A DNA stretch of 64,000 nt. Source: Minisyncoccota bacterium. Its GTDB lineage: Bacteria; Patescibacteriota; Minisyncoccia; Phycocordibacterales; UBA9973. The notes under the pieces are model-generated. The model was given only the letters and a program-made list of their open reading frames with translations. It did no database searches and had not been told where the DNA came from. The number at the start of each line of letters is the position of its first letter. The stretch's first letter is position 1. The stretch is taken from NCBI GenBank assembly GCA_035994985.1, contig DASYKZ010000007.1, forward strand, positions 15,601-79,600, in the 5' to 3' direction. Made by a program: the position numbers and the translations under genes. Positions 4,379 to 29,642 of this stretch are shown here, piece after piece.

Positions 4379-7300
4379 TTAGTGACTTATCACAACAGGT
4401 GTAACCGAGTACACAGTCACTGTGCCGTTAACACTGTCAGTTATATCCGCCCGAATATATTTTGAACTTAAGGATATTCCTGATGTATCCCATACATATT
4501 CATCAGTCGGGTCATCTTCATTTACAGTGGTAATTGAAGTATGGTTGCTATTTGATGGATTAGTATCAGGGTCATAATAGAGGGCTATAGAGGCGTTTTC
4601 TTCCGGATCCTCGTCTATCCACTTGATTGTGTAACTTGCATCGGCGTTGGCGGAAACTGCCGCAGTAGGAGCCGTAAATGTGAAGGTTGGCGATGCATTG
4701 CCTGCGGTAAGCTCAAATGTTCCGCCCCACTCAGTTGCGGTTGAATCTTTACCGGCAAAGTCTCGTGCTATTACTTTAATTTTATACCCCGTACCGAGAA
4801 GGGTTCCCGGAATATCCCACGCATAGGTACGGGTACCGGAGAGAAGGCCTTCCTCGGTGCCTATCAGATACCATGTTGAATCAGCCGGTTCGTAATAATA
4901 GAATGAGGTGCTTTGGACTATGCCGGGAGAGGTTCCGATATCATCTCCAACCGTATACTGAATCAGTTCTCTTTCTTTATTCTCCATTACCTTGTCTGAT
5001 TCTCCAACTATAGAAACAGAGGTAACAGTCGGATTCGCGGTATCAGGTTTAAGGTTCGTATAGATATTTACTCCGGTAACTGCGGTATTGTAGTTGATGT
5101 ATTTGTTAGTGTATGTCTCATAGCGGAAATTTGATACGCGAGCATATGAAGATCCCCATGGCACATTACTTTGCGTGTATGTGCCATCGTCCGCATCTGA
5201 AACAGTATTAGTGCCTGTTGTCACTCCGAGAACATCAACACCCTTAACTGCTCCATCAACCGCTTTTACAGTGCCGGACGTAGTACCGGCAATATAATTG
5301 TTCGCATTAGAACTTACTTTCACCTGCGCGGGAGTAGAGAAGAAATAAATGCTGCCGCCGGAAGACGAGGTGCCTAACGTTGCTTCATAGGTAGTACCTT
5401 CTACTAAACTTCCAACGGTAACATTGGTTCCCGGATACGACACATTTGCCGCAGACCACGTGCTCGTTCCTAAAACCCGGAGCATGATGACATACTTGTT
5501 TAGGTTTGGGTCGCTCTTGGCTGGCCAGCGCCATGTTATTGCCGGAGTTCCACCGGAGGAAACGCTCTTGTATGCAACATAATACATTGGGAGCGCCGGT
5601 CTGCTTGCGGGGTCCGCAGCAAAAGTCAGAATTTCCGCATACCGTGAGTCAGGATGAATAACTTCATTCTCTCCTTCGGCAAATACTTTAAATGATACTG
5701 CTCCCAGAAAACTTCTTGATCCTGATATGCCAAGCGTAACATTGAGAGTCGAATTGGCGTTAACAACGATGCTGTTGGCCGCAAGGTCCACAGTCGCATA
5801 ACCATAATCGTCAGTAATGATATGTAATTTCCCACTATCAATTGCAGTATTGCCATTATTTACCAAAACAATTCTTATATTTGTCGTACCGCCGGTCGTA
5901 AGCGTTGTGAGCGGCACAAGGTCAGTAATTGCGAGCTGACCTGAATCAGTAGAAACCGAAAGTGCTTTAACGACTTTCGCTGTGGTGTATAGGTCGCTGT
6001 CAAAACTGCCGTTACCTGCCTGCTCGTCTTCAAAGTACTCTACTGTATCAAGCTGGTATGTTGGCACTTCTCCTGAAGCTTTTATGGCGTGATATGCCAA
6101 TGCCGTATTAAGTGTATTGTTTTCCCACGTACCGTCTGAAAGCTGGGCAGTAGTGAGGGCAGCGACTGCTGGATTGAGTGTATCGTCAATTGCAATCGGT
6201 CCCATTGTACGATGCCTCCATAAAAGTAATGCTTCAACTACTTCAGCTGTGGTTGCAAAAGGGCTTGTTCCAAAGTTTGAGATACTCCAACCATCATCAA
6301 ATCGCTTTGTATTAATTAAATAGTGAAGCGCTAAAGACTGGGTTTTGTTTATTGATGGACCTGGGTCTTCATACTCTGCAGTAGAAAGAGCTTGGATAGC
6401 TTGAGTAGTAGTTATCGGATCGGCTTTATAGCTTGAATTGAAAATAAAACCTCCTGTATCTTCATCAAGTCCTCTCACGAGTGCTTCAACTGTTGATCCA
6501 GTATCTTCTGCCGCTACTTCCAAAATTTTAATCTGTTTAGCAAGATAATCATTGTTTTCTGTAACATAAGAAGATATCCATGCAATACCATTGTCAACTT
6601 CTGTACCTGTTACATTTTGCGACTGCAGAGCATCCAGCACCGCAGAAGTAGTGACAAACTGGGTGGAACCACTGCCCCATGATCCGTCAGCATTTTGCTC
6701 ACCCAGAAGATAATTAATCGCGTCCTCGCTTACTGATGCCGCATCCGCGAAAGCGCTTGAAGGAGATACCCAACTGACAATTTCACTAAAAGTATTTTTG
6801 ATTGCATTTTTCACTTTTTGGAAAATAGTTTCTTCAACTTTTTCTGCAGGATCTACGGTCTCCATATCTAGCACCTTCACTTTTAGTTCTTCCGGCTGCT
6901 CTTCAAAAGCGATAGCCTTTGAAGCATCCAATGTCTGCATGCTATTAACATTTAAAATTTCATTTGCCGGTTCAATACGGCCCTGTGCGTCTAAATCAAG
7001 ATAGTCTTTCGGGAGTTGCCTTATATCAACAAGCTTTTTAGCTATGGAAAATCTTAAGCCCTCATTCATTTCCGCCTTCCTTTCTATTTTGGTAGATGGC
7101 CACATGAATATAGTCCGATCAATGGAAGCTTTATCACTACGATATGCTTTTATTAATTCTTTTATATCCGAAGATATGGCAAGCGTACTCAGGGCTTCAT
7201 CAGAATTAAGCGCGAGAGCTTTGCCGTGTATGTTTACTTTTTGCTCCCAATCTACTCTGGAAATATCGGGTATGATACTTGATCCGGTATCCACCTTGGG

Positions 7301-7450
7301 GATTTGAATTAAAGATTCAAGCGGTACGAACTGCGAGGGTATCATTTGAGCTTTAGCAGAATAAGGAATAACAGAAGGAAATAGAATGCTGGCTAATAAA
7401 AATACTGATAGTATTTTTGAGAATATATTTGTTTTCATATTTTTATGCAT
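4379..7450 (-). CDS. large secreted surface protein: signal peptide, prenyltransferase/squalene-cyclase-like alpha/alpha-toroid repeats, CARDB-like and Fn3/Ig-like beta domains
   Basis: N-terminal signal peptide MHKNMKTNIFSKILSVFLLASILFPSVIPYSAKAQ. Repeated Q/xxDGSW-type units (LGEQNADGSWGSG, RFDDGWSISNFG, QLSDGTWENNTL, QAGNGSFDSDLY). CARDB-like 'NIRIVLVNNGNTAIDSGKLHI'. Fn3-like 'PAITWRWPAKSDPNLNKYVIMLRV…GTTYEATLGT'. No CxEQ thioester motif. Confidence 0.6.
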   Translation of the reverse strand: MHKNMKTNIFSKILSVFLLASILFPSVIPYSAKAQMIPSQFVPLESLIQIPKVDTGSSIIPDISRVDWEQKVNIHGKALALNSDEALSTLAISSDIKELIKAYRSDKASIDRTIFMWPSTKIERKAEMNEGLRFSIAKKLVDIRQLPKDYLDLDAQGRIEPANEILNVNSMQTLDASKAIAFEEQPEELKVKVLDMETVDPAEKVEETIFQKVKNAIKNTFSEIVSWVSPSSAFADAASVSEDAINYLLGEQNADGSWGSGSTQFVTTSAVLDALQSQNVTGTEVDNGIAWISSYVTENNDYLAKQIKILEVAAEDTGSTVEALVRGLDEDTGGFIFNSSYKADPITTTQAIQALSTAEYEDPGPSINKTQSLALHYLINTKRFDDGWSISNFGTSPFATTAEVVEALLLWRHRTMGPIAIDDTLNPAVAALTTAQLSDGTWENNTLNTALAYHAIKASGEVPTYQLDTVEYFEDEQAGNGSFDSDLYTTAKVVKALSVSTDSGQLAITDLVPLTTLTTGGTTNIRIVLVNNGNTAIDSGKLHIITDDYGYATVDLAANSIVVNANSTLNVTLGISGSRSFLGAVSFKVFAEGENEVIHPDSRYAEILTFAADPASRPALPMYYVAYKSVSSGGTPAITWRWPAKSDPNLNKYVIMLRVLGTSTWSAANVSYPGTNVTVGSLVEGTTYEATLGTSSSGGSIYFFSTPAQVKVSSNANNYIAGTTSGTVKAVDGAVKGVDVLGVTTGTNTVSDADDGTYTQSNVPWGSSYARVSNFRYETYTNKYINYNTAVTGVNIYTNLKPDTANPTVTSVSIVGESDKVMENKERELIQYTVGDDIGTSPGIVQSTSFYYYEPADSTWYLIGTEEGLLSGTRTYAWDIPGTLLGTGYKIKVIARDFAGKDSTATEWGGTFELTAGNASPTFTFTAPTAAVSANADASYTIKWIDEDPEENASIALYYDPDTNPSNSNHTSITTVNEDDPTDEYVWDTSGISLSSKYIRADITDSVNGTVTVYSVTPVVISH

Positions 7451-7465
7451 AATTATTATTAATTT

Positions 7466-8257
7466 TTAACTTTTAAAATATTCATTAAAACTATCAGTCC
7501 AAATGCTGCAATTTTTCTTGTTTTCAAGAATCTTGACTATGCCTCCTGTCGGATTAATTTCTGCAACTTGGCAATCGTTCTCATTTTCAGTATCACTATT
7601 CCATCCAAAACGAACGCTTTTTATAGGAACAAGAGTATTTCCTTCAAGCTTATATTGAGTTTTCGTATTTGAATCGGATCCGTGATTTGTTAGATAAATT
7701 CGACTAGCTTTGTACTCAATAGTATCGAATTCGACCGAATTATCTGGATAACCTTCTAGCTTTATATTTTCTAAACTATTTCCTTCCATTCGAAGTATTT
7801 CGAAGGAGGAGTTATTACTTCCCGTAGTTTGCAATTTTACAAACAACTCTTCAAGTCCATCATTAGTAATGTCTTTTTTAGAAAAGTTATATTTTACTTG
7901 AATACCATCTTCAGGGGATATAGATACACCAACTTCTTTAAGCAGTTTAATTTTTGGACTTAATGAGTAAAACCGATATATTTCCGCTTCGTTTTTGTAG
8001 TTTTCTACAACCAAATATAAGATATTGGCACCAATTCTAATTTCTGTTGCATAGTATTCGGTAGCATTTATAAGATAATGATTGTCGTCTTTTTCTTGAA
8101 TAGTAGAATTTGGGAAAATTTCAGAAAGAAACGACGGCTTTTCTTTCTTTTCTTTGCTGAAACTAGAGAATATTACTACAAAAGCTATCACTATGAGAAG
8201 TACTAAAATGCTAATAATATTTCTTCCTGTTATTAAGTTTTTTTTCTTAAATATCAT
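7466..8257 (-). CDS. hypothetical N-terminally membrane-anchored exported protein
   Basis: 263 aa, one N-terminal TM (ISILVLLIVIAFVVIFSSF). Sits between the two large secreted-protein genes with 15-nt and 4-nt gaps. Confidence 0.5.
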   Translation of the reverse strand: MIFKKKNLITGRNIISILVLLIVIAFVVIFSSFSKEKKEKPSFLSEIFPNSTIQEKDDNHYLINATEYYATEIRIGANILYLVVENYKNEAEIYRFYSLSPKIKLLKEVGVSISPEDGIQVKYNFSKKDITNDGLEELFVKLQTTGSNNSSFEILRMEGNSLENIKLEGYPDNSVEFDTIEYKASRIYLTNHGSDSNTKTQYKLEGNTLVPIKSVRFGWNSDTENENDCQVAEINPTGGIVKILENKKNCSIWTDSFNEYFKS

Positions 8258-8261
8258 AGTT

Positions 8262-11200
8262 TTAATATGTTAAGGTTTTACCGTAAGGAATATCTTGGTC
8301 CGAAGCCCAGCAATATTCCAAAGAATCATTGGTCTTCGCACCTATTGCCTTCATTGCTTCTGGAGAAGCTCCCGCAACTTTATTTGTTGTAATATGAGGA
8401 CCATAATCTAATATTCCAGATAAAACTGCTTTTCCTGTTACGGAATTTTTAATCCAAACTTTTTTACCAAAATACCATTTCTGCTCCGTTAACCTTTCTG
8501 GCATATCAAAATCTGTATACTTCCATCTCATATTCACATAGAATTTTTCATGGTCATTAGAATTTGCAGGTTGCGCAAATGCACCATAACGAATAGACAT
8601 ATTCCAGTATTTGCCAGTCTTTGGGTCTATCCATGGATTATTTATATTACTTGATTGATTTCCTAAATCAATCAAAAATTGAGATGTTGTCGGATGACTA
8701 TGTATATCGTCCTGTTTATTGTATTGAATTTGGCCACCATGTCGTGTTTGATAAGTTCCAGAATTTTTATCTATAAAGAGTGGCAAGTGCATTTCTTCTG
8801 CTATTGTACCAGAAGTAGCGGGTAAGCTTCTTCCCTCAAGAGTTGTTGTACATACTACGGAAGTAGGGTTGGAACCTTTTACAATATTTACATCAACTGA
8901 GGAACTAGTACCGTAGCCCGAATGCAAAGTTATGGTCTGTATGGGAAAGGTTGTCGTATTAATATCTCCTTCTTCATCCCAATCGTGAAAAATCGAATCA
9001 TAACTCGCACTCCAGTGAATATCTTCACCTCGTTTTACAGTAGCATTATTCGTAGGTGAATTAATCGTAGCGGTAAGTCCGGGTAATGTATGAGCTCGCC
9101 AGAAATTGGACCAGCCTGTTGGGAATTGTTCTACAGTATATCCACCGTTAAGCCCTTCTCCAATCGCGTAAGTTCCATCGCCGACATCATAGTCTAAGGC
9201 AATATAAAAGAGGCCTTCCCAGTCTCCGTAAGTAATTGAGTCCGAGGGTGTATAAATTATTTTTCCATCGCCAATGGCATCATGAAAAACGGTTTTCATT
9301 CCAGGAGAGATAGATAGAGAATCAATGTCTCCCTCGTTTGCTTCTGTTATTTTCTCGAGAGTTATCCCTGGAAATTCTCCGTCTGCGACTAATTTTAATC
9401 CTTTTACCGTTGCTACTGATTCTATGTCAAAATTATCCTCAAAGATATCTGATTCATCTTGAGATCCTTGAAGCCCGAACAAAGCCATAAATTCTTTTCT
9501 ATTAGAATATATATCATCCCCGAACCTACTAAAATATCGAACCAGCGAAGAAGAGTCAATTCGCAGTCCTTTCCATTCAAACGAATATGGCTGTCCACTG
9601 CTGTATGTTACTTCTACGCCATTAGAAATCGCTGCGCTTGTGGCACGATTAGTAAAATCTCCTCCTGTGATACCGGCAAGTTCACGATGATTTTTCTGTA
9701 AGCGGCCTAAATAATCTACTCCTGTGCGATATAGCTTTTGGCTTTGCATAAATGTACCGCTATCCGTATCTTCATCTGGACGTAGTATGCTTGGGACAAT
9801 ACGGTCAGTATTCAAAGCAACTCCGTCCGTAGTTCCAGTTACAATGCTTTTTTCTAGAGTTTCTGCAAGTTCAGAATCCACTGAATCACCTATGTCTCGA
9901 ATCGGCACGTTAAATTCCATTTTGTATTTATGCACTTTCCCAAGAATATCGCTTGCTGTTCCGGTCGCAACAATATCGCCCCCAACTCTTATTTTAGGCT
10001 TCACATCTGCTAGAGTAAGAGGGACGACATCGTAAATAGTATCAAATCCGTCAATTATAGTCTGGTCTTCCGGGGTTGCCGCTTCATATGTAACTAGAAT
10101 TTCGCGATTAGCCAAGTCTGAAATAAAAGCAGTATAGGTAAGAACTTCTGTACTTGTTGTATCAGTTACCGTAAAGTCTATTGTATGACGCAGAGAAGTT
10201 GGGATATAGTCATAGGTGTTAAGATCAGTCGAAATTTCATACGGCAACGACCCTGGGACAGTTTCAAGCTCCATATTTGCACCAAACTTACGCATCAAGA
10301 CTTCTTGATATGTATAGCTATCATTGTCGGCAGGAGGATTAGCTATAAGCCAGTCCTCAACTTTACCTTGAAAGACCTCAAGAGGTTCCTGTGTTGCATA
10401 ATCTCCATTCAAATAGTCATCAAAAAAATCTTCTATGTCAAAACCGTCACTATTCATTTCATCAACTGCATCTACAACCTGAGAATATAAATAAGAATTG
10501 AAAGTAGGGTCCATGGCTACCCATTGAGACTCGCCACCATCATTTAAATCTGCGCCACGGCTATAGCCGTAAGGCATATATGCTTCAACATATGTATGTT
10601 CCAGCACAAAAAATACAGGTTCGTCATTTTGGGTATACATGATATAAGGTATATCCTCTAAAGAGAGAATTTCAGCAGCTCTTATAGGTGAATCTACTCC
10701 AAGCAGTCCTGTGACTGTGGATATTTCAACTTTCACATCAGCGTGGCGATAGCGGGCAGGAATATCACTATACCTAAGCATGGCAACAAGCAGGGACGAT
10801 TTATCCATGTCATTTCCGGCAAGTTCAACGAGAGTTCCATCTGATCCTTTCTTTGATCCGTAATATGGTATGTATTCAATTTCGTTTCGTAAAAAATTCA
10901 ATATTTTCAAAGGATCATTGGATAATTCGTCCGCTTTGTCTTGAATGGCCTGTGAAAATTTTATCTCATTTCCTTCCGCAATATAGTCATCCGGGTCGTT
11001 GCTGGCATCTGCATATATTTTTTCTCCTCCAAATAGCCAAGAGATTATGCCGCCTTTTTCTTTAGTTTTATCAAAGTCAGAGTTATAGAAAGTTCCATCA
11101 AGTAGGAAATTTTTAACTTTCTGAAGAAAGTTACCATGTTCTTTGGCCTGTTCAAATTTTTTCTCATAATCGTCTGCTGGAGCGGTATTTATCTTACCGT

Positions 11201-11777
11201 CAAAATTCTCCACTTTAAAGGGCTCACGCTCCATAAGCTTCTTTGCTTCATCTGCTTCTCTAGCTTCTTTTGTGTTACCTGTAATGAAATCAAATATTTT
11301 CTTTATTATGCCGTCCTTAGGATTTTCCGTTTGCTGTTTTTCAAAAGCATCTAGACGTTCAATAGCGGTTTCAGGGAGTTTATTATCAATTAAATGTTGC
11401 CTGACTTTAGCAAGTTGCTCTTCTACGGACAAAGAATTATCCTTTTTAAATTTTGTTTTTAAAAGCGGTACCTCTTCAGCAGGCGCAACAGCTTCAGCTG
11501 GTGCTTCAGTTGCTTGCTCTTGCTCTAACGCAGGTGCTGTAGTTTCTTCCTGTGGTGAAGGTAAAGTAGAATCCTCCTCAACTGGTGAATTCGCATTATC
11601 TCCAGAAACTGGCTCTTCCTGCGCCGGAAATTCTGTTTGTGGGACAGCATTCTCTTGAGCAAACACTCGTACGACAGGCATCACTGGAGATAAGACGAAT
11701 GAAAGAAATAACAATATAGCTAGTAATCTTTTAGTAACCTTCAAACAACGTACAAACTTTATATATGAAGTTGGCAT
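8262..11777 (-). CDS. large secreted protein with transglutaminase-like (papain-fold) core domain; nucleophile position appears substituted (Cys→Asp)
   Basis: Signal peptide, acidic Pro/Glu/Ala-rich linker, then 'ELAGNDMDKSSLLVAMLRYSDIPARYRHADV … EHTYVEAYMP … WVAMDPTFN'. This matches the TGase-like G-x-C-x-D…IPAR…H…D pattern except that the Cys is replaced. Confidence 0.6.
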   Translation of the reverse strand: MPTSYIKFVRCLKVTKRLLAILLFLSFVLSPVMPVVRVFAQENAVPQTEFPAQEEPVSGDNANSPVEEDSTLPSPQEETTAPALEQEQATEAPAEAVAPAEEVPLLKTKFKKDNSLSVEEQLAKVRQHLIDNKLPETAIERLDAFEKQQTENPKDGIIKKIFDFITGNTKEAREADEAKKLMEREPFKVENFDGKINTAPADDYEKKFEQAKEHGNFLQKVKNFLLDGTFYNSDFDKTKEKGGIISWLFGGEKIYADASNDPDDYIAEGNEIKFSQAIQDKADELSNDPLKILNFLRNEIEYIPYYGSKKGSDGTLVELAGNDMDKSSLLVAMLRYSDIPARYRHADVKVEISTVTGLLGVDSPIRAAEILSLEDIPYIMYTQNDEPVFFVLEHTYVEAYMPYGYSRGADLNDGGESQWVAMDPTFNSYLYSQVVDAVDEMNSDGFDIEDFFDDYLNGDYATQEPLEVFQGKVEDWLIANPPADNDSYTYQEVLMRKFGANMELETVPGSLPYEISTDLNTYDYIPTSLRHTIDFTVTDTTSTEVLTYTAFISDLANREILVTYEAATPEDQTIIDGFDTIYDVVPLTLADVKPKIRVGGDIVATGTASDILGKVHKYKMEFNVPIRDIGDSVDSELAETLEKSIVTGTTDGVALNTDRIVPSILRPDEDTDSGTFMQSQKLYRTGVDYLGRLQKNHRELAGITGGDFTNRATSAAISNGVEVTYSSGQPYSFEWKGLRIDSSSLVRYFSRFGDDIYSNRKEFMALFGLQGSQDESDIFEDNFDIESVATVKGLKLVADGEFPGITLEKITEANEGDIDSLSISPGMKTVFHDAIGDGKIIYTPSDSITYGDWEGLFYIALDYDVGDGTYAIGEGLNGGYTVEQFPTGWSNFWRAHTLPGLTATINSPTNNATVKRGEDIHWSASYDSIFHDWDEEGDINTTTFPIQTITLHSGYGTSSSVDVNIVKGSNPTSVVCTTTLEGRSLPATSGTIAEEMHLPLFIDKNSGTYQTRHGGQIQYNKQDDIHSHPTTSQFLIDLGNQSSNINNPWIDPKTGKYWNMSIRYGAFAQPANSNDHEKFYVNMRWKYTDFDMPERLTEQKWYFGKKVWIKNSVTGKAVLSGILDYGPHITTNKVAGASPEAMKAIGAKTNDSLEYCWASDQDIPYGKTLTY

Positions 11778-11861
11778 GTATTTAAAAATAATAAAAATTA
11801 TAATAAAAGAATATACTATATTGAGTTAAAGATTTTCTAAAGAACTGATAAAGGTTACCAC

Positions 11862-12620
11862 TTATCTATATTTCTTGATTTTATCTTGATTAATTTCTAC
11901 GCAATCGGACGTGCTACTATCTTCCGCTGTGGTCCAGCTATCTATGCGCTCTTCTATGCTGTAAATTTTCCATTCTCCCTCTATCCTCTTGAAAGTAAAT
12001 TGATCGATATTATCACCCTCGCCTTTGCATCCGTTTCCCGCAGCACCTAGATATGATTGCCATCCTCGTCTGCCATAGACAAGCATTGTGTTTTCATCTA
12101 AGAGCTTGCGACCTAGCGCTTCTCCCCCAATACCTGCTCCGGTTGGCCACGGAAACTGAAATATCCATGCAGGGGAATTTTTATCAAAAAATGCCAGGCG
12201 AAAAGCTTCATAATGCGGACTATTCCAATCGTCAGATGGTGGTGGAACAACAAAATACGGAGCAAAAAATTCTGTAAATTCGTGCTTGCCTGACCTATCG
12301 AATATTGAGTATTCGGAAGTACTGCCATAATAGAGGGTCAGGTCATAGTATGTGGCGAGGATTACGTCAATTGCGGTATCATCTTTGGGAACAAATTTCT
12401 TAAGCTCTTCCGCTGCTTTTTGATAAGAAACATCTGCCGAATGGTCAACGGCTTGTTTCACTTTAAGATTTATCTTGCCGTCATAGGTCGAGATTTCTTT
12501 CGAGTATAAGTCTTTATACTCTCTGTCTCTTTTATTTAAGAATAAAAAAAGAGATATACCTATTAAAAGAAGTACGAGAAAAAATACTGAGATAATTTTC
12601 TTATTTTTTAAGTGTTGCAT
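11862..12620 (-). CDS. hypothetical membrane-anchored protein
   Basis: 252 aa with a single N-terminal TM (IISVFFLVLLLIGISLFLFL). Confidence 0.5.
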   Translation of the reverse strand: MQHLKNKKIISVFFLVLLLIGISLFLFLNKRDREYKDLYSKEISTYDGKINLKVKQAVDHSADVSYQKAAEELKKFVPKDDTAIDVILATYYDLTLYYGSTSEYSIFDRSGKHEFTEFFAPYFVVPPPSDDWNSPHYEAFRLAFFDKNSPAWIFQFPWPTGAGIGGEALGRKLLDENTMLVYGRRGWQSYLGAAGNGCKGEGDNIDQFTFKRIEGEWKIYSIEERIDSWTTAEDSSTSDCVEINQDKIKKYR

Positions 12621-12716
12621 TTAGTTTATTATAACACTTTCTATATAAATAAATTGATATCAATAGTTTTCACATAGCTCTAAATAACAATCACAATATA
12701 TGTTAATATTAAAAAT

Positions 12717-13826
12717 ATGAAAAAGCTAAAGGTTATATTTGATAATAACTCCCATATAGCCGGCAAAGGAAAGCCTATTTTAGAAATTTTTTCTAATAAT
12801 GTTATTAATCTTAAAAAATTTATATCCAAAAATAATATAAATGAAAGAGTTTCTAGTTGTTTTACTGAAATAATAAAAGAAGAAGGTATTAAAGAACTTC
12901 AAAGACGAGTAATCGCTAGATATCACGATGTTAAAAAATCCGCTGAAGCAATTAAAGGTATCGTTCCAGAAGATTTTATTTCTGAACTTAATGAAGGAGA
13001 ATTAAAAAATAAAATTGAAGAACAATATGATTTAAAATTAAAAGAAAATAATATAGAGATTATACCTCTACCTTCCGAAGCAAAAATATTAGAACTCTCA
13101 GAACGAGCACTTGATTATATACCTCCTTTTGAGATTGGGGATAAAGGTTTTAAGGATACTTTAATTTGGTTGTCTATTCTTGAAGATGCAGAAAAAAATA
13201 AAGACTTTGATTATATTTTTGTAACTGGAGATAAAATCTTTAATGATAGAGTCAAGAATGAGTTCAAGGCAAAACTAGGAAAAAATATTCATATAATTTT
13301 ACCAGAACTTATTGAAGAATCTTTGGATGAAGTTTTGGATTTAGGAATCGGATTAGAAAAAGCTAGAGAAGAAGCAACAAAAGCTTTGAAATTAGATGAG
13401 TCTCTCCAAAGGAAACTAGAGAAGGTTGCATTAGAAGAGCTTGCTCAACCAACCAACGCTCTTTCTCTTATCTTTTATAGTGGTGGGGAAAATAATAAAT
13501 GGGAGTCTAAGGTAGTTAATTTAATTTTCAAAGACGCAAATATAAGTATTAAAAATAAAACCTCAGCAGATACTTTTGAGATAGAGGCAACTATATCTTT
13601 TAAACCTAAATATGAAAAATCTGAAAATGAAGCGGATCAATCTCTTTACGGGGCTACAAGGTCTAATATTACAGTCATGTCTATGTATAACGGAGATAGA
13701 ATCTATTATCCAATTTCATTGAAAAAAACTTTCGACCTTACATATAAAAAAGGCAAAGGCTTTGATATTACGGGTTCTGGTAAAATGTACCCCGATTTTC
13801 CATTCACCATAAATAATTTCTACTAG
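12717..13826 (+). CDS. hypothetical protein with N-terminal PIN-like nuclease-type domain
   Basis: 'VIFDNNSH', 'GDKGFKDTLIWLSILE' and 'YIFVTGDKIFNDRV' show the spacing of conserved PIN acidic residues. AT-rich, Lys-rich; a lone + strand gene in the accessory islet. Confidence 0.45.
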   Translation: MKKLKVIFDNNSHIAGKGKPILEIFSNNVINLKKFISKNNINERVSSCFTEIIKEEGIKELQRRVIARYHDVKKSAEAIKGIVPEDFISELNEGELKNKIEEQYDLKLKENNIEIIPLPSEAKILELSERALDYIPPFEIGDKGFKDTLIWLSILEDAEKNKDFDYIFVTGDKIFNDRVKNEFKAKLGKNIHIILPELIEESLDEVLDLGIGLEKAREEATKALKLDESLQRKLEKVALEELAQPTNALSLIFYSGGENNKWESKVVNLIFKDANISIKNKTSADTFEIEATISFKPKYEKSENEADQSLYGATRSNITVMSMYNGDRIYYPISLKKTFDLTYKKGKGFDITGSGKMYPDFPFTINNFY

Positions 13827-13893
13827 ACTTAATTAAAATGCCAACACTCTAGCAAAATTAGCCAGTTTTGCTACTATTAAAATCTTCTAAAGA

Positions 13894-14565
13894 TTATATT
13901 CTCTTTTTTATCTTACGAGGGTTAGCTTTTTTATATCTACGAGCTTCTTCTTTATTGTCGGCTTCCCAAACTTTATCTCTAAATGATGATAATTGACTAG
14001 CTATTGCGTAATTTTGTCTTATAAATTTCAGTATTATACTAGGAGTAATTTTTATCTTTCTAAAATTCATCCCTAACCCTTCTCTGTTTTCTACACTTTT
14101 GTATCTCACAAAACCAGCTTCATCTAAACTCTGCCAGTTGGCATGAGCAATAATATTTCTAAACTCTGATAATTCAACAAGTTTTAAATAAATTAGCTTT
14201 ATTTCACTAAGTAACTTAGATTGCTTTTTTCCTGTTAAACAATATTTTATAAAAGCAAAATAATCATCCCTTAATAAATCAATCTTCTGTCTAAATTCTA
14301 AATATTTTATTATTCTATAACCAGGTTCATATGCTCTATCACTAATAGCAGTAGCTAAATCCACATCAACTCTGTCTTCTAATGCTGAAAAAGAAATAAC
14401 TAATCTCCCTATTGATCTAGCATATTTTTCTTCAACTTCTTCTATCACTTCGAATTCTCCATTAGTATCTTCTTCATCGTTAGTTCCATACTGACCCATA
14501 TAAGCCGCTTTAATTTCTAGTTTTATTTTTTCCTTTGGTTTTCTCATAACTGGAAATGCTTTCAA
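13894..14565 (-). CDS. hypothetical protein with HEPN-like R-x4-H motif (Abi-like)
   Basis: 223 aa; 'LSEFRNIIAHANWQ' (RNxxxH) sits in a predicted helical context. 10 nt downstream of its partner gene. Confidence 0.4.
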   Translation of the reverse strand: MKAFPVMRKPKEKIKLEIKAAYMGQYGTNDEEDTNGEFEVIEEVEEKYARSIGRLVISFSALEDRVDVDLATAISDRAYEPGYRIIKYLEFRQKIDLLRDDYFAFIKYCLTGKKQSKLLSEIKLIYLKLVELSEFRNIIAHANWQSLDEAGFVRYKSVENREGLGMNFRKIKITPSIILKFIRQNYAIASQLSSFRDKVWEADNKEEARRYKKANPRKIKKRI

Positions 14566-14575
14566 TTAAAGATAA

Positions 14576-15586
14576 TTATGACAAATTATCAAAAAGCCCC
14601 GATTGGTCATCTGGAATAATTTCTTGCTGTTTTTTTACTCTTTCTTTGTGAAAAACAATATCTTCGTTATAACTTTCTACTTCCCTAATGTAAATACTCC
14701 GATTTAACAGTATTCCACCTTTTAAATCACCAGTAATATCAAAAATTACTTTCATGTTATCGCCACTAGCAAATGTTCGTTCTCTTTTATAAGTCTGATC
14801 CTTAAAATCAGGGTCTTGCATATAAAAATCAATGTCTTCACCATTGGTTAAAATTGTTACACTTTCTGAAACTATATTTTCTCCAAAATATGTCCCCCTC
14901 CAAGATATGCCTCTGCCTTCTCTTTTCTGTTTAACTACTGGAGATATTAATTCTATAATGCCATTGGCATTTTCGTAAGAATATTTTTTGTCTAATATCG
15001 GTTCTATATATTTAGGAAAATCCTCTTTTACTATCTTTTTTGAAGAAATAATTTCCCCTTTCGAATCTTTTAAGAGAGTTTCATTATCTTTAATCATATT
15101 ATCTCTTTGCAGGGTGTCGTAAATATTGTTTTTTTTCTTTTTTAAATTTAAGTTTCCACATACCTCAGCTAATTTTTCATCAGGAATATTTTCTATATCA
15201 TAATCTCCCTTGAGTGCTTCCATATTTTGCTTTAATTCTAGGCATTTTGCTGTATCGTCTACAACCCACATATTCTTCTCGTGTAAATGCTCTTCGTGGG
15301 AATCCTTATAATTCAAAACAACAAAGACTAAACCAGCGACAGTAGCAGCAGTTCCTAGCGATACCCCTATTTTATTTTTCTTAATAAATTTTATTATATC
15401 TTTATACGATCCTGGCTCAGAAGGAAGTAAGAAAATTTCAAACTCTTCGTTTGGATATAAAACTTTTGACATTTCTTGGAGCATAGCTACCAAGTCTTCT
15501 GAACATTTATTCCGTGTATTGGCACGGATATAATGATCTGGTACTCCAAAATGGGTTTCTATGGTTATGAAATTTTCAGCTGTCAT
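14576..15586 (-). CDS. hypothetical protein with one internal TM segment; operon partner of the HEPN-like gene
   Basis: 336 aa with a TM helix GVSLGTAATVAGLVFVVL; no recognisable catalytic motif. Confidence 0.45.
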   Translation of the reverse strand: MTAENFITIETHFGVPDHYIRANTRNKCSEDLVAMLQEMSKVLYPNEEFEIFLLPSEPGSYKDIIKFIKKNKIGVSLGTAATVAGLVFVVLNYKDSHEEHLHEKNMWVVDDTAKCLELKQNMEALKGDYDIENIPDEKLAEVCGNLNLKKKKNNIYDTLQRDNMIKDNETLLKDSKGEIISSKKIVKEDFPKYIEPILDKKYSYENANGIIELISPVVKQKREGRGISWRGTYFGENIVSESVTILTNGEDIDFYMQDPDFKDQTYKRERTFASGDNMKVIFDITGDLKGGILLNRSIYIREVESYNEDIVFHKERVKKQQEIIPDDQSGLFDNLS

Positions 15587-15800
15587 AGTTATAATTATTT
15601 TCTATAATCTGAATAATTTTTTCTTGTAACAAGATTTTTAGTTGGAATCTTTTTGTTCCTATTCCTTAATTTCTACCATAAAATTTCTAGTTTTACAAGA
15701 CTAACCACGATATTTGCAAAATGAAATTGGGACTATGATAAAATGTATATAGTTGATAGAAATATTAACCAGTAGAGAGTAATGTAATAGCGCGTTCTAG

Positions 15801-15853
15801 AACCTTTTCAAGAGCGCACAACTACACTGTGCTCTACTGAAAAGGTTTTTTGT
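15801..15853 (+). terminator. strong intrinsic-terminator-like hairpin (17-18 bp stem + T-run)
   Basis: aaccttttcaagagcgcaca / tgtgctctactgaaaaggtt followed by ttttttg. A promoter-like TTGCAA (15714-15719) with a -10-like element lies ~100 nt upstream. Confidence 0.55.
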
Positions 15854-16315
15854 TATCTTGCCTCATTGTTAGGAATGAGGGTTATACTGGAGGGCTAGGC
15901 TACGTTACCAACACTGGGCCTCCTCTGGATGCGATATAAACAAGTGTTGGCTGACGAATAGCTAAGCGTCTATTATCTTAGCCAAGGGAGTCTGATTGTA
16001 AAGAGATTTATTAGCAGACATCCTTGTAGGTCAGTGTCTCATAGTGGATGTAGTCAATCGACAAGCCACAAAGGGAAAAAGGAGTACATGTATGTGCTAG
16101 AAAGTCCGTTTTGACGGACACATACAGAGACAGATTCAATCAGGAGTAATTCCCTGAAAAAGCTAGATTGATAAATCACTTCCGAGAGAAAACGGAATCA
16201 CGTGATGATACTGACAAGTAGGAAACGAACGTTATCTTTGATATGGTCAAAATATTTAATAAAAACACGCTTAACCTTTCAACAGGAGTTCCCAGTATAG
16301 GAGTATCAAGATGAA

Positions 16316-16576
16316 ATGGAAACTTTGGAAATTGAGCTTTCAGAACATACGAAAGCAGATTACGATTACCAAACAACTGTTGCTATGGTTATTTCTGTAG
16401 CACGTAGAGCAAAAGAAATATTTGAAAAAAGTTCTGACACGGCCGGAAAAAGAGCATTTTTAAATTCTTTGCTTCAGAACCCTACCATAAATGGAAAAAA
16501 GCTAGATTTTACAATAGCTTCTCCATATAATCTTGTACTAGAATTAGCTGATCACCCTAACTGGCTCCGGGGGTAG
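16316..16576 (+). CDS. small hypothetical ORF (86 aa) ending inside the 3' end of tRNA-Asn on the opposite strand; possibly an element remnant or non-coding
   Basis: ORF with K/E-rich composition. An in-frame stop lies immediately upstream, and the ORF overlaps the tRNA by 15 nt. Confidence 0.2.
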   Translation: METLEIELSEHTKADYDYQTTVAMVISVARRAKEIFEKSSDTAGKRAFLNSLLQNPTINGKKLDFTIASPYNLVLELADHPNWLRG

Positions 16577-16636
16577 GGATCGAACCTACGACCAATCGCT
16601 TAACAGGCGACCGCTCTACCACTGAGCTACCCCGGA
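16562..16636 (-). tRNA. tRNA-Asn (anticodon GTT), CCA encoded
   Basis: The reverse complement tccggggtagctcagtggtagagcggtcgcctgttaagcgattggtcgtaggttcgatccctacccccggagcca folds as a cloverleaf with anticodon loop cuGUUaa. Confidence 0.85.
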
Positions 16637-16738: not shown

Positions 16739-16811
16739 GGGCCGTTAGCTCATCTGGTAGAGCACCTCATTTGCAATGAGGGGGTGGCAGGTTCGAGTCC
16801 TGTACGGTCCA
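16739..16811 (+). tRNA. tRNA-Ala (anticodon TGC), with the G3:U70 identity pair
   Basis: gggccgttagctcatctggtagagcacctcatttgcaatgaggg…ggttcgagtcctgtacggtcca; CCA not encoded. Confidence 0.9.
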
Positions 16812-16824
16812 CTTTTAAAAAGCT

Positions 16825-18394: not shown

Positions 18395-18401
18395 ATGTTT
18401 G

Positions 18402-18784
18402 GTCTTGTGCCTATAAGCCGAATTTTGTCTTCCCTTGCGGGATAATGGCAATTTGTCTAGGCCCTAAATTACTTGAGGGCTCAAGCGATTCTCCCCGCAC
18501 ATAACTTTACACAACTTTATATACCTTATTAAACTAGAGATGTAGAGTTATGTGCGGGGCGCGATCTTGCACAGAGGTAAGGATTTAGCCGTTTCACCCT
18601 AGTGTTACCACTAGATTATTCCCGAAGGAACCCTAGCCTTTCGGCCTTGGCGTCTCTGTTCGCACCTATATATTGCTATACACGGGTATTACCCGCTACC
18701 ATTCCCAGTCCCTTCTGGAACTTCGCTGTGTTCGGACTTTCCTCTCTGAAATAAATCAGAGTAGCCATCCAGCATAAGACTAAT
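18402..18784 (-). ncRNA. rnpB: RNase P RNA (bacterial type A-like)
   Basis: The minus strand contains GAGGAAAGUCCG (P4 5'), the P3 hairpin cucugauuuauuucagag, AGGGUGAAACGG, GCUUGAGCC, the P18 GNRA hairpin ucccgcaaggga, and ACAAAAUUCGGCUUAUA (P4 3'). P1 pairing is agucuuaugc/gcacaagac. There is a long AU-rich insertion helix (ccccgcacauaacu…aguuaugugcgggg). Confidence 0.8.
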
Positions 18785-21853: not shown

Positions 21854-22104
21854 GGGACCATGAATTTATGCAGGCCCCCAGCATCGCGAATTGTTTCATC
21901 GCCAGGCTGTAAATATAAATGGTATGTATTTGCTAATATTACTTCCGCGCCAAGCTCACTTACCTGTTCGGGTGTTAAAGCCTTTACAGTTGCTTTCGTG
22001 CCGACAGGCACGAAAGCGGGAGTATATATAACTCCGTAAGGAGTTTCAAGTACTCCTGCCCTACCTAAGCTATTTTGTAATTTTTTTTCAATTTTGAAGT
22101 CCAT
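21850..22104 (-). CDS. tgt: queuine tRNA-ribosyltransferase, N-terminal fragment (84 aa), ending in an ATGA stop/start overlap with the C-terminal piece
   Basis: 'GRAGVLETPYGVIYTPAFVPVGTKATVKALTPEQ…ANTYHLYLQPG…GGLHKFMVP*'. The next conserved TGT segment (ITDSGGFQ) continues in the -1 frame. Confidence 0.7.
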   Translation of the reverse strand: MDFKIEKKLQNSLGRAGVLETPYGVIYTPAFVPVGTKATVKALTPEQVSELGAEVILANTYHLYLQPGDETIRDAGGLHKFMVP

Positions 22105-22178
22105 TTTATAAATGTGGATAACTTTGACTTTTATATCAAAATTTGCTATATTTAAAGTGATCGAAAGATCACAAACTT

Positions 22179-22209
22179 TACTGCTTAGGGGCTCCGCAAG
22201 GAGTCCCTT
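22179..22209. terminator. terminator-like GC hairpin (ggggctcc-gcaa-ggagtccc) with a downstream T-run on + and a second hairpin (gtgatcgaaagatcac) at 22148-22163
   Basis: Lies between the NYN gene stop and the tgt start; orientation ambiguous. Confidence 0.35.
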
Positions 22210-22221
22210 TGGCTTTTTATA

Positions 22222-22983
22222 TTATAGGGCCTTTATTTTATCCTTTATACTTTGAGATAAGTCTCTTGGCCAGCAAATAAACTCCTTAATCTTTTTAATA
22301 TCAAACACAAAGGTTCCCGTTTCATCTAATTCAGTAGAGACTTTACCGGAAGTTGCAAAAATTACTGCATTTTTCCCATCACTTCTTATCTGATTTACGG
22401 GACCCGCGAAATCACTATCTACACTCCATAATATGTAGTTATTGATTCCATCATTGTCAAAATCTCTGAGCATATCTCTACCCATTTCAACATCAAAATT
22501 ACACTTTTGTTCTTCTATCTCAAAAATTCCTTGCTTATTAAAGATCTCTAGTTTTCCATTTAGATATTCTATAGTTTCTATAGCTAGCTTTGATAAAAGA
22601 CTTTTCTTTATAAAATTTTTCAATATACTTGGAGAATTTTTAGGAATACTGGACATATCAATAGGTATCCTCATTAATTTTACTGGTTTAGTAGTAACAC
22701 TATAACCCATAGCTTCCAACTCTGGAATACAATCTTCAGATTGTTGATTACCTTCTAAGGTTCCAGTGTAAATTTTAACAGAATTTATTGTATCAAAAGA
22801 ATCAAATAACTGTTTCATTCTTTTTAAATCTATGTTCCACTTTAGTTTGTCTTGCCAATGTATGACATTAGACCAATCAATATAAATGTTTGTAGGACCA
22901 TCAAAAATTTTCTCCAAATCTGATATAACTTTGGGAAATAATTTTGCTAACTTTTCAATTCTGTCTGTTTTTGGTATAAACAT
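22222..22983 (-). CDS. NYN/LabA-like (PIN-fold) nuclease domain protein
   Basis: 'NIYIDWSNVIHW' (beta1 Asp), 'CNFDVEMGRDML' and 'YILWSVDSDFAGPVNQIRSDGKNAVIFAT' fit the NYN pattern (D…D-x-D…SGD-DF…G-x-V). Confidence 0.6.
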   Translation of the reverse strand: MFIPKTDRIEKLAKLFPKVISDLEKIFDGPTNIYIDWSNVIHWQDKLKWNIDLKRMKQLFDSFDTINSVKIYTGTLEGNQQSEDCIPELEAMGYSVTTKPVKLMRIPIDMSSIPKNSPSILKNFIKKSLLSKLAIETIEYLNGKLEIFNKQGIFEIEEQKCNFDVEMGRDMLRDFDNDGINNYILWSVDSDFAGPVNQIRSDGKNAVIFATSGKVSTELDETGTFVFDIKKIKEFICWPRDLSQSIKDKIKAL

Positions 22984-22986
22984 AAA

Positions 22987-23568
22987 TTATTCTTTCGTCT
23001 CATTAATTTCTTCTACTAAAACTTCTTCTTTGCAGTATTTTTCTGAAAACTCCTTTAATTCAGTTTTAATGTCTTTGAGTTCACCATCCATTATTGCTTC
23101 CGTAGTTTCTGGAGTTTTAGGGATAAGTAATTTCACCCTCCTAAATTCAAATGTATGGTAAGAATTATTTACATTTATATCTTCCTCATTTACTACATTA
23201 GTCTTTCCTTGATTGTTATTAAACGTTTTTACCATCTTTTTTGTACGTGTAACAATTTTTGGAGACCAGTTTGCCATTTTTGCTGCATCTGACCCATACT
23301 TCTCGTATTCATTGATAACTTTTATTACTCGAGATTTATAAGTAGCCAAAGAACCGGCACTAAATTTCCCTTTTGCAAAAATGCTGTTTGAAATTTGTCC
23401 AATATTTTTCTTAACTTCATTTATAGACTTAACTTCTTCCTCATTTAATTCTTCCTCAAATAACTTCAGGGCTGTCTTAAGAGCAGACCCTGTATTTTCA
23501 GGGTATTTGCGACTCTTTACAGCCCTGTTAATAAAATCATATAAATTTTTAAAATTTTGTTTTTCCAT
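22987..23568 (-). CDS. hypothetical protein, operon partner upstream of the NYN gene (3-nt gap)
   Basis: 193 aa, K/E-rich, no recognisable motif. Confidence 0.5.
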   Translation of the reverse strand: MEKQNFKNLYDFINRAVKSRKYPENTGSALKTALKLFEEELNEEEVKSINEVKKNIGQISNSIFAKGKFSAGSLATYKSRVIKVINEYEKYGSDAAKMANWSPKIVTRTKKMVKTFNNNQGKTNVVNEEDINVNNSYHTFEFRRVKLLIPKTPETTEAIMDGELKDIKTELKEFSEKYCKEEVLVEEINETKE

Positions 23569-23837
23569 AGTTTTATTTTTATAATTACTAATGAATATAT
23601 TCTATTATAGCTCAATATAGAAGTCAAGAGTAGTTATAAATTGATGCTGTGGAAAACTTTATAATATCTTTATAAATAAGGGTATTTATGTCAGATTTGA
23701 TTTCAAGAAAATGTTCGTTAACGTTTCAATAAATTATTAATTTATTGAAAAATATCTACTCTCTCTGTAAACATCTTTTCTTTGGCTTATATTTTATAAT
23801 ATATAATAGTTATGAGCTATATGTTTAGAGGATAGTT

Positions 23838-24656
23838 TTAGTTTGCCACTTCCACAAATTTAAGTTGCTGGATATTTACCGGAGAAACAAGCAGGGCTTT
23901 CTGCGAAGAGTCGCGAGGGTCAGAAATTACCGTTTCCACTACTCCTATGACATACGGAGTAATGCCGGGCAGCACTGCCTGGTCCCCTTTCCACAACACC
24001 AAATCTCTCGGCACTATCATTTCAAAATTTCCCCCGCCCCTGCCTGCAACTTCTGTAAAAATATTGCCGGCCTGTCCCGCTTGCGGAGAAAGCACTACCT
24101 CTGTAGCTTCCCCACTATTGGAAAATAAAATTACTTTTGAAGATTTTGGGTATGCTTCGGCTATCCGGCCAATGGGTAGATTGCCAAAAGCAAACACTCT
24201 GTCGCCCATTTTTATCCCTTTGTCTACTCCGATGTCAATCAATAAAGTATCGTAAGGGCTTTGGTTTGGCTTTGCCAATATCGCGCCCAATGTCATTTTT
24301 ACCTGCTCATTCTTGCGGCCTAAAATTTCCTTCAGGCCCGCATTCTCTGCTACGACAGAAGCATAATTTGCCCTGTCGGCGCTGTCGGCATCCCTCTCAG
24401 ATTTCAAGTCAGCATTTTCCTTAGAAAGAGAGCTTTTAAAAGAAAAGTAACTGGCGAAACTTGTGAGTTTTCTGCCGGCACCATTTCCGGAACTAAGTAC
24501 AGGACGGAAAACTGCCGTACTGACATAGCCGAGCCCGCTAAAAACTCCAGCGCGGAAATAAAATAATATGATAAAAACCAGGACGGCACCGATGATTTTT
24601 AAATTCTTGTTCCTTTTATTTTTTTTATCGAGGAGGTAATTCATTTTGATTACCAA
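23838..24656 (-). CDS. mreC: rod shape-determining protein MreC
   Basis: N-terminal TM, coiled-coil and C-terminal beta domain (…GNLPIGRIAEAY…VSPVNIQQLKFVEV). Immediately downstream of mreB with a 32-nt overlap. Confidence 0.65.
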   Translation of the reverse strand: MVIKMNYLLDKKNKRNKNLKIIGAVLVFIILFYFRAGVFSGLGYVSTAVFRPVLSSGNGAGRKLTSFASYFSFKSSLSKENADLKSERDADSADRANYASVVAENAGLKEILGRKNEQVKMTLGAILAKPNQSPYDTLLIDIGVDKGIKMGDRVFAFGNLPIGRIAEAYPKSSKVILFSNSGEATEVVLSPQAGQAGNIFTEVAGRGGGNFEMIVPRDLVLWKGDQAVLPGITPYVIGVVETVISDPRDSSQKALLVSPVNIQQLKFVEVAN

Positions 24657-29566: not shown

Positions 29567-29642
29567 GCCGGAATAGCTCAGTTGGTAGAGCAACACTTTT
29601 GTAAAGTGAAGGTCGTGGGTTCGAATCCCTCTTCCGGCTCCA
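29567..29642 (+). tRNA. tRNA-Thr (anticodon TGT), CCA encoded
   Basis: gccggaatagctcagttggtagagcaacacttttgtaaagtgaaggtcgtgggttcgaatccctcttccggctcca; anticodon loop uuUGUaa. Confidence 0.8.

Follow-up and report, generated by a model that had tools for sequence, protein, structure and literature searches.

A predicted solo HEPN ribonuclease beside a PDC-S42-family candidate defence protein in a low-GC locus of a Minisyncoccota bacterium

We analysed a 64,000-nucleotide stretch of contig DASYKZ010000007.1 from a Minisyncoccota bacterium (hereafter the window, whose positions are used throughout) and examined two neighbouring genes on its reverse strand, gene A upstream and gene B downstream. 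Gene B encodes a stand-alone protein that is likely to be a member of the HEPN superfamily, and gene A encodes a full-length member of PDC-S42, a PADLOC family of candidate phage defence proteins. On balance, we lean slightly towards the interpretation that the locus is a small, probably acquired defence islet of three independently mobile single-gene cassettes, in which A and B are separate units and not an obligate pair. The features of the two genes are as follows.

14576..15586, reverse strand: gene A, open reading frame (ORF) of 336 aa, PDC-S42-family protein, candidate phage defence
13894..14547, reverse strand: gene B, 217 aa from the ATG at M7, predicted solo HEPN-superfamily ribonuclease (RNase)
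14548..14575, reverse strand: A-B spacer of 28 nt (sequence; no terminator-like site)
14143..14160, reverse strand: RNIIAH of gene B (R136-N137-x3-H141), putative HEPN catalytic motif (translation, invariance in 65 diverse relatives)
14377..14379, reverse strand: codon of E63 of gene B, invariant acidic residue N-terminal of the motif (translation, alignments)
15314..15370, reverse strand: hydrophobic segment of A, residues 73-91, IGVSLGTAATVAGLVFVVL, possible single transmembrane (TM) helix (Kyte-Doolittle)

A first-pass annotation of the window had noticed that EFRNIIAHANW in the gene B product fits the Rx4-6H motif of HEPN RNases. The sequence EFRNIIAH is encoded at 14143-14166 on the reverse strand, and its histidine, H141, is the only one in the protein. 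By itself, the motif is weak evidence, since a bare Rx4-6H arose in 22% of shuffles of the gene B protein (RNxxxH in 0.34%); it is the conservation of R136, N137, H141 and E63 in relatives that places it beyond chance. These four residues were the only invariant columns in an alignment of 65 diverse relatives (20-43% identity to the query), in which G53, F59, G82, K94 and W144 were nearly invariant. R136-N137-x3-H141 was also invariant in 30 close relatives, N137 being in the place where HEPN motifs usually have a polar residue after R, and E63 was invariant in the close alignment too. Thus, the motif that had been pointed out is present, and RNxxxH is conserved among homologs throughout both sets.

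A word-indexed search returned 43 close relatives of B (52-71% identity), all of them named hypothetical and derived from Paceibacterota/Parcubacteria. An exhaustive profile search extended the family to 262 representatives (E ≤ 1e-3, counted at 50% identity), mostly stand-alone proteins of 175-195 aa and including some from cultured Massilia (e.g. WP_082552053.1 of Massilia sp. Root351) and Duganella. A third word-indexed homolog search, run with the wide B profile, produced no further annotated relatives. One contig of 3.4 kb, encoding a B homolog of 67% identity (L003, JBGAFY010000176.1), was labelled as a metagenome-assembled genome (MAG) of Rhabdochlamydiaceae; the other taxon-labelled close homologs were all from the candidate phyla radiation (CPR), and the label of L003 may be a binning artefact or reflect a transfer.

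The window gene B protein had no match among the models of Pfam (E ≤ 1), NCBIfam, PADLOC or PHROGs. The family consensus, however, matched HEPN_Cthe2314 (PF18730) with an E value of 1.6e-5, residues 62-172 being collinear with positions 62-169 of the 174-position profile, and it also matched Pfam Swt1 and Abi_2 below their cut-offs. When members were scanned individually, sub-threshold Pfam matches were obtained to HEPN_Cthe2314 (6 members, best E 1.1e-4), HEPN_Swt1 (5), Abi_2 (4) and RiboL-PSP (2), and all of the recurrent Pfam families were HEPN families. Similarly, in PADLOC 14 of 65 members matched a Csx1/Csm6 CARF+HEPN model and 9 matched a Csx1 model, again sub-threshold, and the seven PADLOC matches of the consensus (best E 6.8e-6) all lay in the C-terminal HEPN portion of CARF-HEPN/Csx1/Csm6 models. 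With regard to the profile check suggested in the first-pass annotation, the consensus and individual members did match HEPN families, but every match was sub-threshold and the window protein itself gave none.

An AlphaFold2 (AF2) model of B (mean predicted local distance difference test score, pLDDT, 79) contained long helices at residues 41-74, 91-109, 112-141 and 175-214 and a beta-hairpin at 152-172. According to the AF2 secondary structure, which speaks to topology only, the motif at 136-141 closes the third long helix on its C-terminal side, and the hairpin comes after it; this placement agrees with the published description of HEPN domains (PMC3710099). The same work reported that an acidic residue on the N-terminal side of Rx4-6H is often conserved in HEPN domains and that the hairpin of the Csx1 HEPN domain immediately follows the motif (PMC3710099). 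E63 falls in the first long helix of our model (41-74), cf. helix-2 in that description. B-like domains were additionally found fused to other domains, namely to Mrr_N in a 288-aa protein (P0120) and at the C-terminus of a 568-aa protein with HEPN_Toprim_N and SLFN_AlbA_2 (P0155), which thus contains two HEPN-type domains. Such architectures are typical of conflict systems.

Gene A matched the PADLOC model PDC-S42 over its full length (E 9e-29, 98.9 bits), with residues 7-332 aligned to positions 11-317 of the 320-position profile. The PDCs are 145 phage defence candidates that were defined by their embedding in BREX, DISARM or type I restriction-modification (R-M) systems (bioRxiv 10.1101/2024.01.29.577857); the name PDC-S42 was not found in the searchable literature. 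Gene A had no match in Pfam or in PDB sequence searches, so the earlier statement that the upstream protein contains no known motif holds for Pfam but not for PADLOC, where it is a full-length family member. We found 51 homologs of A. Searching plasmids by tblastn gave one weak Parabacteroides match for A and nothing for B.

In the AF2 model of A (pLDDT 81), a beta-alpha-beta-beta N-terminal domain (6-69) is followed by a hydrophobic helix (79-91), after which come a helical region (99-161) and a C-terminal domain rich in beta structure (167-306). Residues 73-91 had a Kyte-Doolittle value of 2.19 over 19 residues, and the equivalent segment scored 1.3-2.2 in 36 homologs, its sequence varying while its hydrophobicity was kept. 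The segment may thus form one TM helix, and to this extent the single helix assigned to A by the first-pass annotation is compatible with the hydropathy profile. The segment is preceded by KKNK and followed by acidic residues, and if it crosses the membrane, these flanking charges would put the C-terminal domain on the outer side of the cell. C115 and C143, located just after the segment, were invariant across 37 homologs; in the case of a membrane-spanning segment, a disulfide-bonded extracytoplasmic C-terminal domain is a possibility. Homologs from the CPR clade were only ~22% identical to gut Bacteroidales-type members, and the segment was more hydrophobic in the CPR clade.

To describe the surroundings of A homologs, 80 metagenome loci of at least 195 that were positive by tblastn were fetched, together with look-ups of the closest relatives. 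The CPR-like homologs among the fetched loci were 34-60% identical to A. In 12 of 18 distinct contexts, A lay within a type I R-M operon, in the gap that separates hsdS from hsdR, with the order hsdS-A-(x)-hsdR (L007, L009, L010, L011/12, L014/15, L018, L019, L021, L022, L025, L100 and L101). Contexts outside R-M operons were also defence-type: SNF2/PLD and an Eco57I-type methyltransferase (L087), ResIII and DUF6119 (L098/99), DUF2726 and an OLD-like ATPase (L102), and a serine recombinase, NOV_C and SLFN_AlbA_2 (L088). The gut-metagenome relatives (~22% identity) were stand-alone. Predicted RNases flanked several A homologs on the same strand, namely Ymh HEPN (L009), PIN_12 (L012, following A) and an Abi_C-like protein (L015), and proteins bearing Rx4H, identified by this motif only, lay beside A in L100 (274 aa, RNSLTH) and L008 (156 aa, RCNLFH). 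The window copy of A was not R-M-embedded, and no hsd or other defence-gene remnants were found around it.

Several A homologs (among L017-L022 and L025) were intact only when translated with genetic code 25, in which UGA is a sense codon; their database translations have W at positions where other members keep G. The requirement for this code indicates that the A family extends into UGA-recoded CPR (Gracilibacteria/Absconditabacteria-like), where it occurs in type I R-M operons.

Both ORFs described in the first-pass annotation were present, as 14576..15586 (reverse strand, 336 aa) and 13894..14565 (reverse strand, 223 aa). The 223-aa option for gene B starts at an upstream TTG and leaves 10 nt to gene A, and an ATG lies six codons in (M7 of the 223-aa version, MRKPKEKIKL). 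Since M7 corresponds to the first residue of all 29 aligned homologs of B, and NCBI/JGI call an identical protein in a Candidatus Paceibacterota MAG with 217 aa, gene B likely spans 13894..14547, which gives a spacer of 28 nt rather than 10 nt; the shorter gap holds with the TTG start. A terminator scan between the two genes detected no terminator-like site. Based on their common strand, the 28-nt gap and the lack of a terminator, A and B are probably co-transcribed at the window locus.

Co-occurrence of A and B was assessed in 102 loci by tblastn followed by hidden Markov model scans of every ORF of ≥70 aa under genetic codes 11 and 25. Only the window's own contig (L001/L002) and L087 carried both genes. 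Adjacency was seen in 2 of the 18 contexts of A and in 2 of the 10 of B, and the remaining eight B contexts (L003, L004, L005, L006, L091, L093, L094 and L096) were without A. In L087, where A and B are 64% and 58% identical to those of the window, A is followed by a 60-nt gap, B and then a wHTH (winged helix-turn-helix) gene, and the flanking context differs from that of the window. The A protein of L087 is 84% identical to that of L098/99, which is without B; in L099, a wHTH gene (42% identity and E 3e-37 to that of L087) directly follows A. These loci thus form a natural indel, A-B-wHTH (L087 7030-7758) versus A-wHTH with a 22-nt spacer (L099 3547-3568), which indicates that B is a discrete single-gene cassette inserted or deleted between A and the wHTH gene. 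Furthermore, the window B protein was closest to P0002, whose locus is without A, and the two A-linked B proteins ranked only 17th-18th of 29 for each other, so that adjacency was gained or lost repeatedly and neither gene needs the other. As each family usually occurs without the other, A and B are not obligate partners, and obligate operon pairing is not supported. Of the two-gene operon initially described, the shared strand and a spacing compatible with co-transcription remain, but the genes mostly occur apart. The suggested membrane-sensor/effector or toxin-immunity pair was not borne out as an obligate system, given the adjacency counts, the 84%-identical A without B and the lack of an antitoxin-type partner.

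Comparisons of the A profile with other upstream partners of B by hhalign gave nothing, and comparisons of the B profile with the Ymh, Abi_C-like, L094 343-aa, L100 274-aa and L008 156-aa proteins aligned Rx4H in some cases with no significance. Two B homologs adjoin unannotated proteins with an RNxxxH motif of their own, a 205-aa protein with KRNDVIH in L003 (1021-1638, forward strand) and a 343-aa protein with YRNKFVH in L094 (2780-3811, reverse strand); these are possibly further uncatalogued HEPN-like families that cluster with B.

Genes A and B share a compositionally distinct patch with a third gene, as listed here together with the nearest tRNA gene.

12300..15900, no strand: low-GC patch of ~3.6 kb that holds exactly PIN_12, B and A (composition profile)
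12717..13826, forward strand: PIN_12 protein of 369 aa, convergent, predicted RNase-type defence gene (Pfam PF16289)
16562..16636, reverse strand: tRNA-Asn (GTT), ~1 kb upstream of A (ARAGORN + Rfam)

The GC content of the patch was 24-33%, compared to mostly 37-46% in its flanks (with one window of 34.5% at 11500-11899), and the patch was probably horizontally acquired. The PIN_12 gene matched PF16289 with an E value of 4.3e-15 and 57 bits relative to a cutoff of 32; in PHROGs, no match was found for A, B or the PIN_12 protein. tRNA-Asn is a possible integration landmark of the islet. A repeat scan detected no att-like direct repeat derived from tRNA-Asn, and no integrase was found around the islet. 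The ~975 nt between A and tRNA-Asn (15587-16561) contained no convincing gene. An 86-aa ORF (16316-16576, forward strand) that overlaps the 3' end of tRNA-Asn had no Pfam or PHROG match; it was considered as a serine-recombinase remnant and dropped, as it had no similarity to the recombinases of L088 and L093. In the non-coding region upstream of A, an inverted repeat at 15801-15847 (20-nt arms, 85% complementary, 7-nt loop), followed by TTTTTGTT on the forward strand, resembles a strong forward-strand terminator, and no forward-strand gene ends there.

Some results weigh against the interpretation of B as a HEPN protein and of the locus as a set of separate cassettes. No curated HEPN model was passed, the window B protein being without a Pfam match even at E ≤ 1, and the best Pfam match of the consensus reached 25.4 bits relative to a gathering cut-off of 27.1 for HEPN_Cthe2314, with an artificial consensus sequence only. 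Fold searches with the B model retrieved vinculin/catenin-type and designed helical bundles and no HEPN structures. The fold check supported the long-helix topology and the position of the motif but not a structural match; searches of the PDB with the A and B sequences and the family profiles gave nothing useful. These observations would fit a helical-bundle protein other than a HEPN RNase, e.g., a regulatory or nucleotide/ligand-binding protein in which E, RN and H serve a non-nuclease role. However, the top recurrent matches in both Pfam and PADLOC were HEPN families and covered the motif, the invariant residues of B are exactly the HEPN catalytic set, and its fusion partners and neighbourhoods are defence-type. 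We consider a non-HEPN identity quite improbable, and the invariant motif, the coherent sub-threshold matches and the helix position give the HEPN assignment partial support.

As for the relationship of the two genes, A and B belong to two rare families (about 45-50 clusters each) that lie side by side, ordered alike, in two diverged loci. Chance alone is an unlikely explanation for this recurrence, which hints that their functions are in some way related. A facultative two-gene module, in which A, possibly membrane-anchored, senses infection or regulates and an interchangeable neighbouring RNase acts as effector, would be consistent with the tight same-strand arrangement without a terminator, with the A-to-B order of L087 between different flanks, with the Ymh HEPN, PIN_12 and Abi_C-like neighbours of other A homologs, and with the Rx4H-bearing neighbours in L100 and L008. 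In contrast, A is directly followed by hsdR or unrelated genes in L010, L019, L101, L088, L098/99 and L102, most B contexts are without A, and PADLOC treats PDC-S42 as a single-gene candidate. Moreover, R-M operons commonly contain HEPN and PIN genes (PMC3710099), and the base rate of RNase neighbours is therefore high. We regard such a module as rather unlikely, and it is likewise doubtful that PDC-S42-like proteins in general are membrane-anchored sensors or regulators with swappable RNases (B family, Ymh, Abi_C-like, PIN_12) that often back type I R-M. HEPN toxins are also often paired with an adjacent neutraliser, and A and B are tightly spaced, as expected if they formed a toxin-antitoxin (TA) or toxin-immunity pair in which A neutralises a HEPN toxin B. 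Yet A contains no MNT/nucleotidyltransferase or known antitoxin domain, B homologs are mostly without A and have no conserved neighbour, A homologs are mostly without B, and the larger gene coming first and the gene sizes are atypical for HEPN-MNT systems, all of which makes a TA pair highly unlikely.

Comparison with known systems placed B closest to small solo HEPN families. Like HEPN_Cthe2314 (PF18730), Swt1-like, Abi_2/AbiD-AbiF and RiboL-PSP proteins (Anantharaman et al. 2013), B is a small stand-alone helical protein (~180-220 aa) with an RNxxxH that terminates the third core helix, an upstream acidic residue, and defence-island and R-M-linked contexts, its best match being collinear over ~110 residues; unlike them, it has a ~20-residue beta-hairpin after the motif and a ~40-residue N-terminal extension. 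Models of Csx1/Csm6 HEPN proteins were the only PADLOC matches of the B consensus, covering their C-terminal part only (e.g. 276-369 of 404) at E values of only 1e-4 to 1e-6. Csx1 has a beta-hairpin right after Rx4-6H (PMC3710099), as does the AF2 model of B, but the 217-aa B protein contains no CARF or Rossmann sensor domain. In comparison to HEPN-MNT type II TA systems, the window lacks a nucleotidyltransferase domain in A or any neighbour. Regarding A, the match to PDC-S42 is full-length and the CPR homologs are R-M-embedded, in line with the defining criterion of PDCs, whereas the window copy is not. A homologs also occupy the same hsdS-X-hsdR slot as PrrC in EcoprrI (hsdM-hsdS-prrC-hsdR), which suggests a putative back-up or guard role for R-M, by an analogy drawn in the PDC study (bioRxiv 10.1101/2024.01.29.577857). 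Unlike PrrC, A has neither an ABC-ATPase nor an anticodon-nuclease domain, and its sequence is not similar to that of PrrC (Pfam, NCBIfam, PADLOC).

Under the interpretation of the locus as an islet of separate cassettes, the B protein would, by analogy with HEPN RNases, dimerise as a stand-alone protein, with R136/N137/H141 and E63 forming a composite metal-independent RNase site. It may be switched on by infection and cleave cellular or phage RNA, leading to abortive infection or to an arrest of growth. A would act on its own or, where it is embedded, as a back-up to R-M, possibly through a membrane-linked activity, and PIN_12 would be the third, convergent cassette of the islet.

Close to the islet, ARAGORN/Rfam scans identified the following ordinary housekeeping RNA genes.

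18398-18780, reverse strand: bacterial class A RNase P RNA (111 bits)
16739-16812, forward strand: tRNA-Ala (TGC)
29567-29642, forward strand: tRNA-Thr (TGT)

Two other stretches, 22000-24000 and 7000-9000, also had a low GC content (31-34% in a background of ~42-47%) and may be acquired segments.

Defence systems are poorly charted in CPR/Patescibacteria, which have tiny genomes and are episymbiotic. Our analysis delineates a HEPN-type family, with ~262 representatives at 50% identity, that is absent from Pfam, NCBIfam, PADLOC and PHROGs. The novelty is modest, as this is a new, uncurated family of a known superfamily beside a member of an already catalogued candidate family. In addition, the analysis provides independent metagenomic evidence for a strong embedding of the candidate PDC-S42 in R-M systems across CPR lineages, among them UGA-recoded ones. 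The B family is open to experiment because it has members in cultured hosts, Massilia and Duganella. If A indeed cooperates with variable RNases, this would represent a new modular defence logic; at present, the locus is an ordinary small defence islet.

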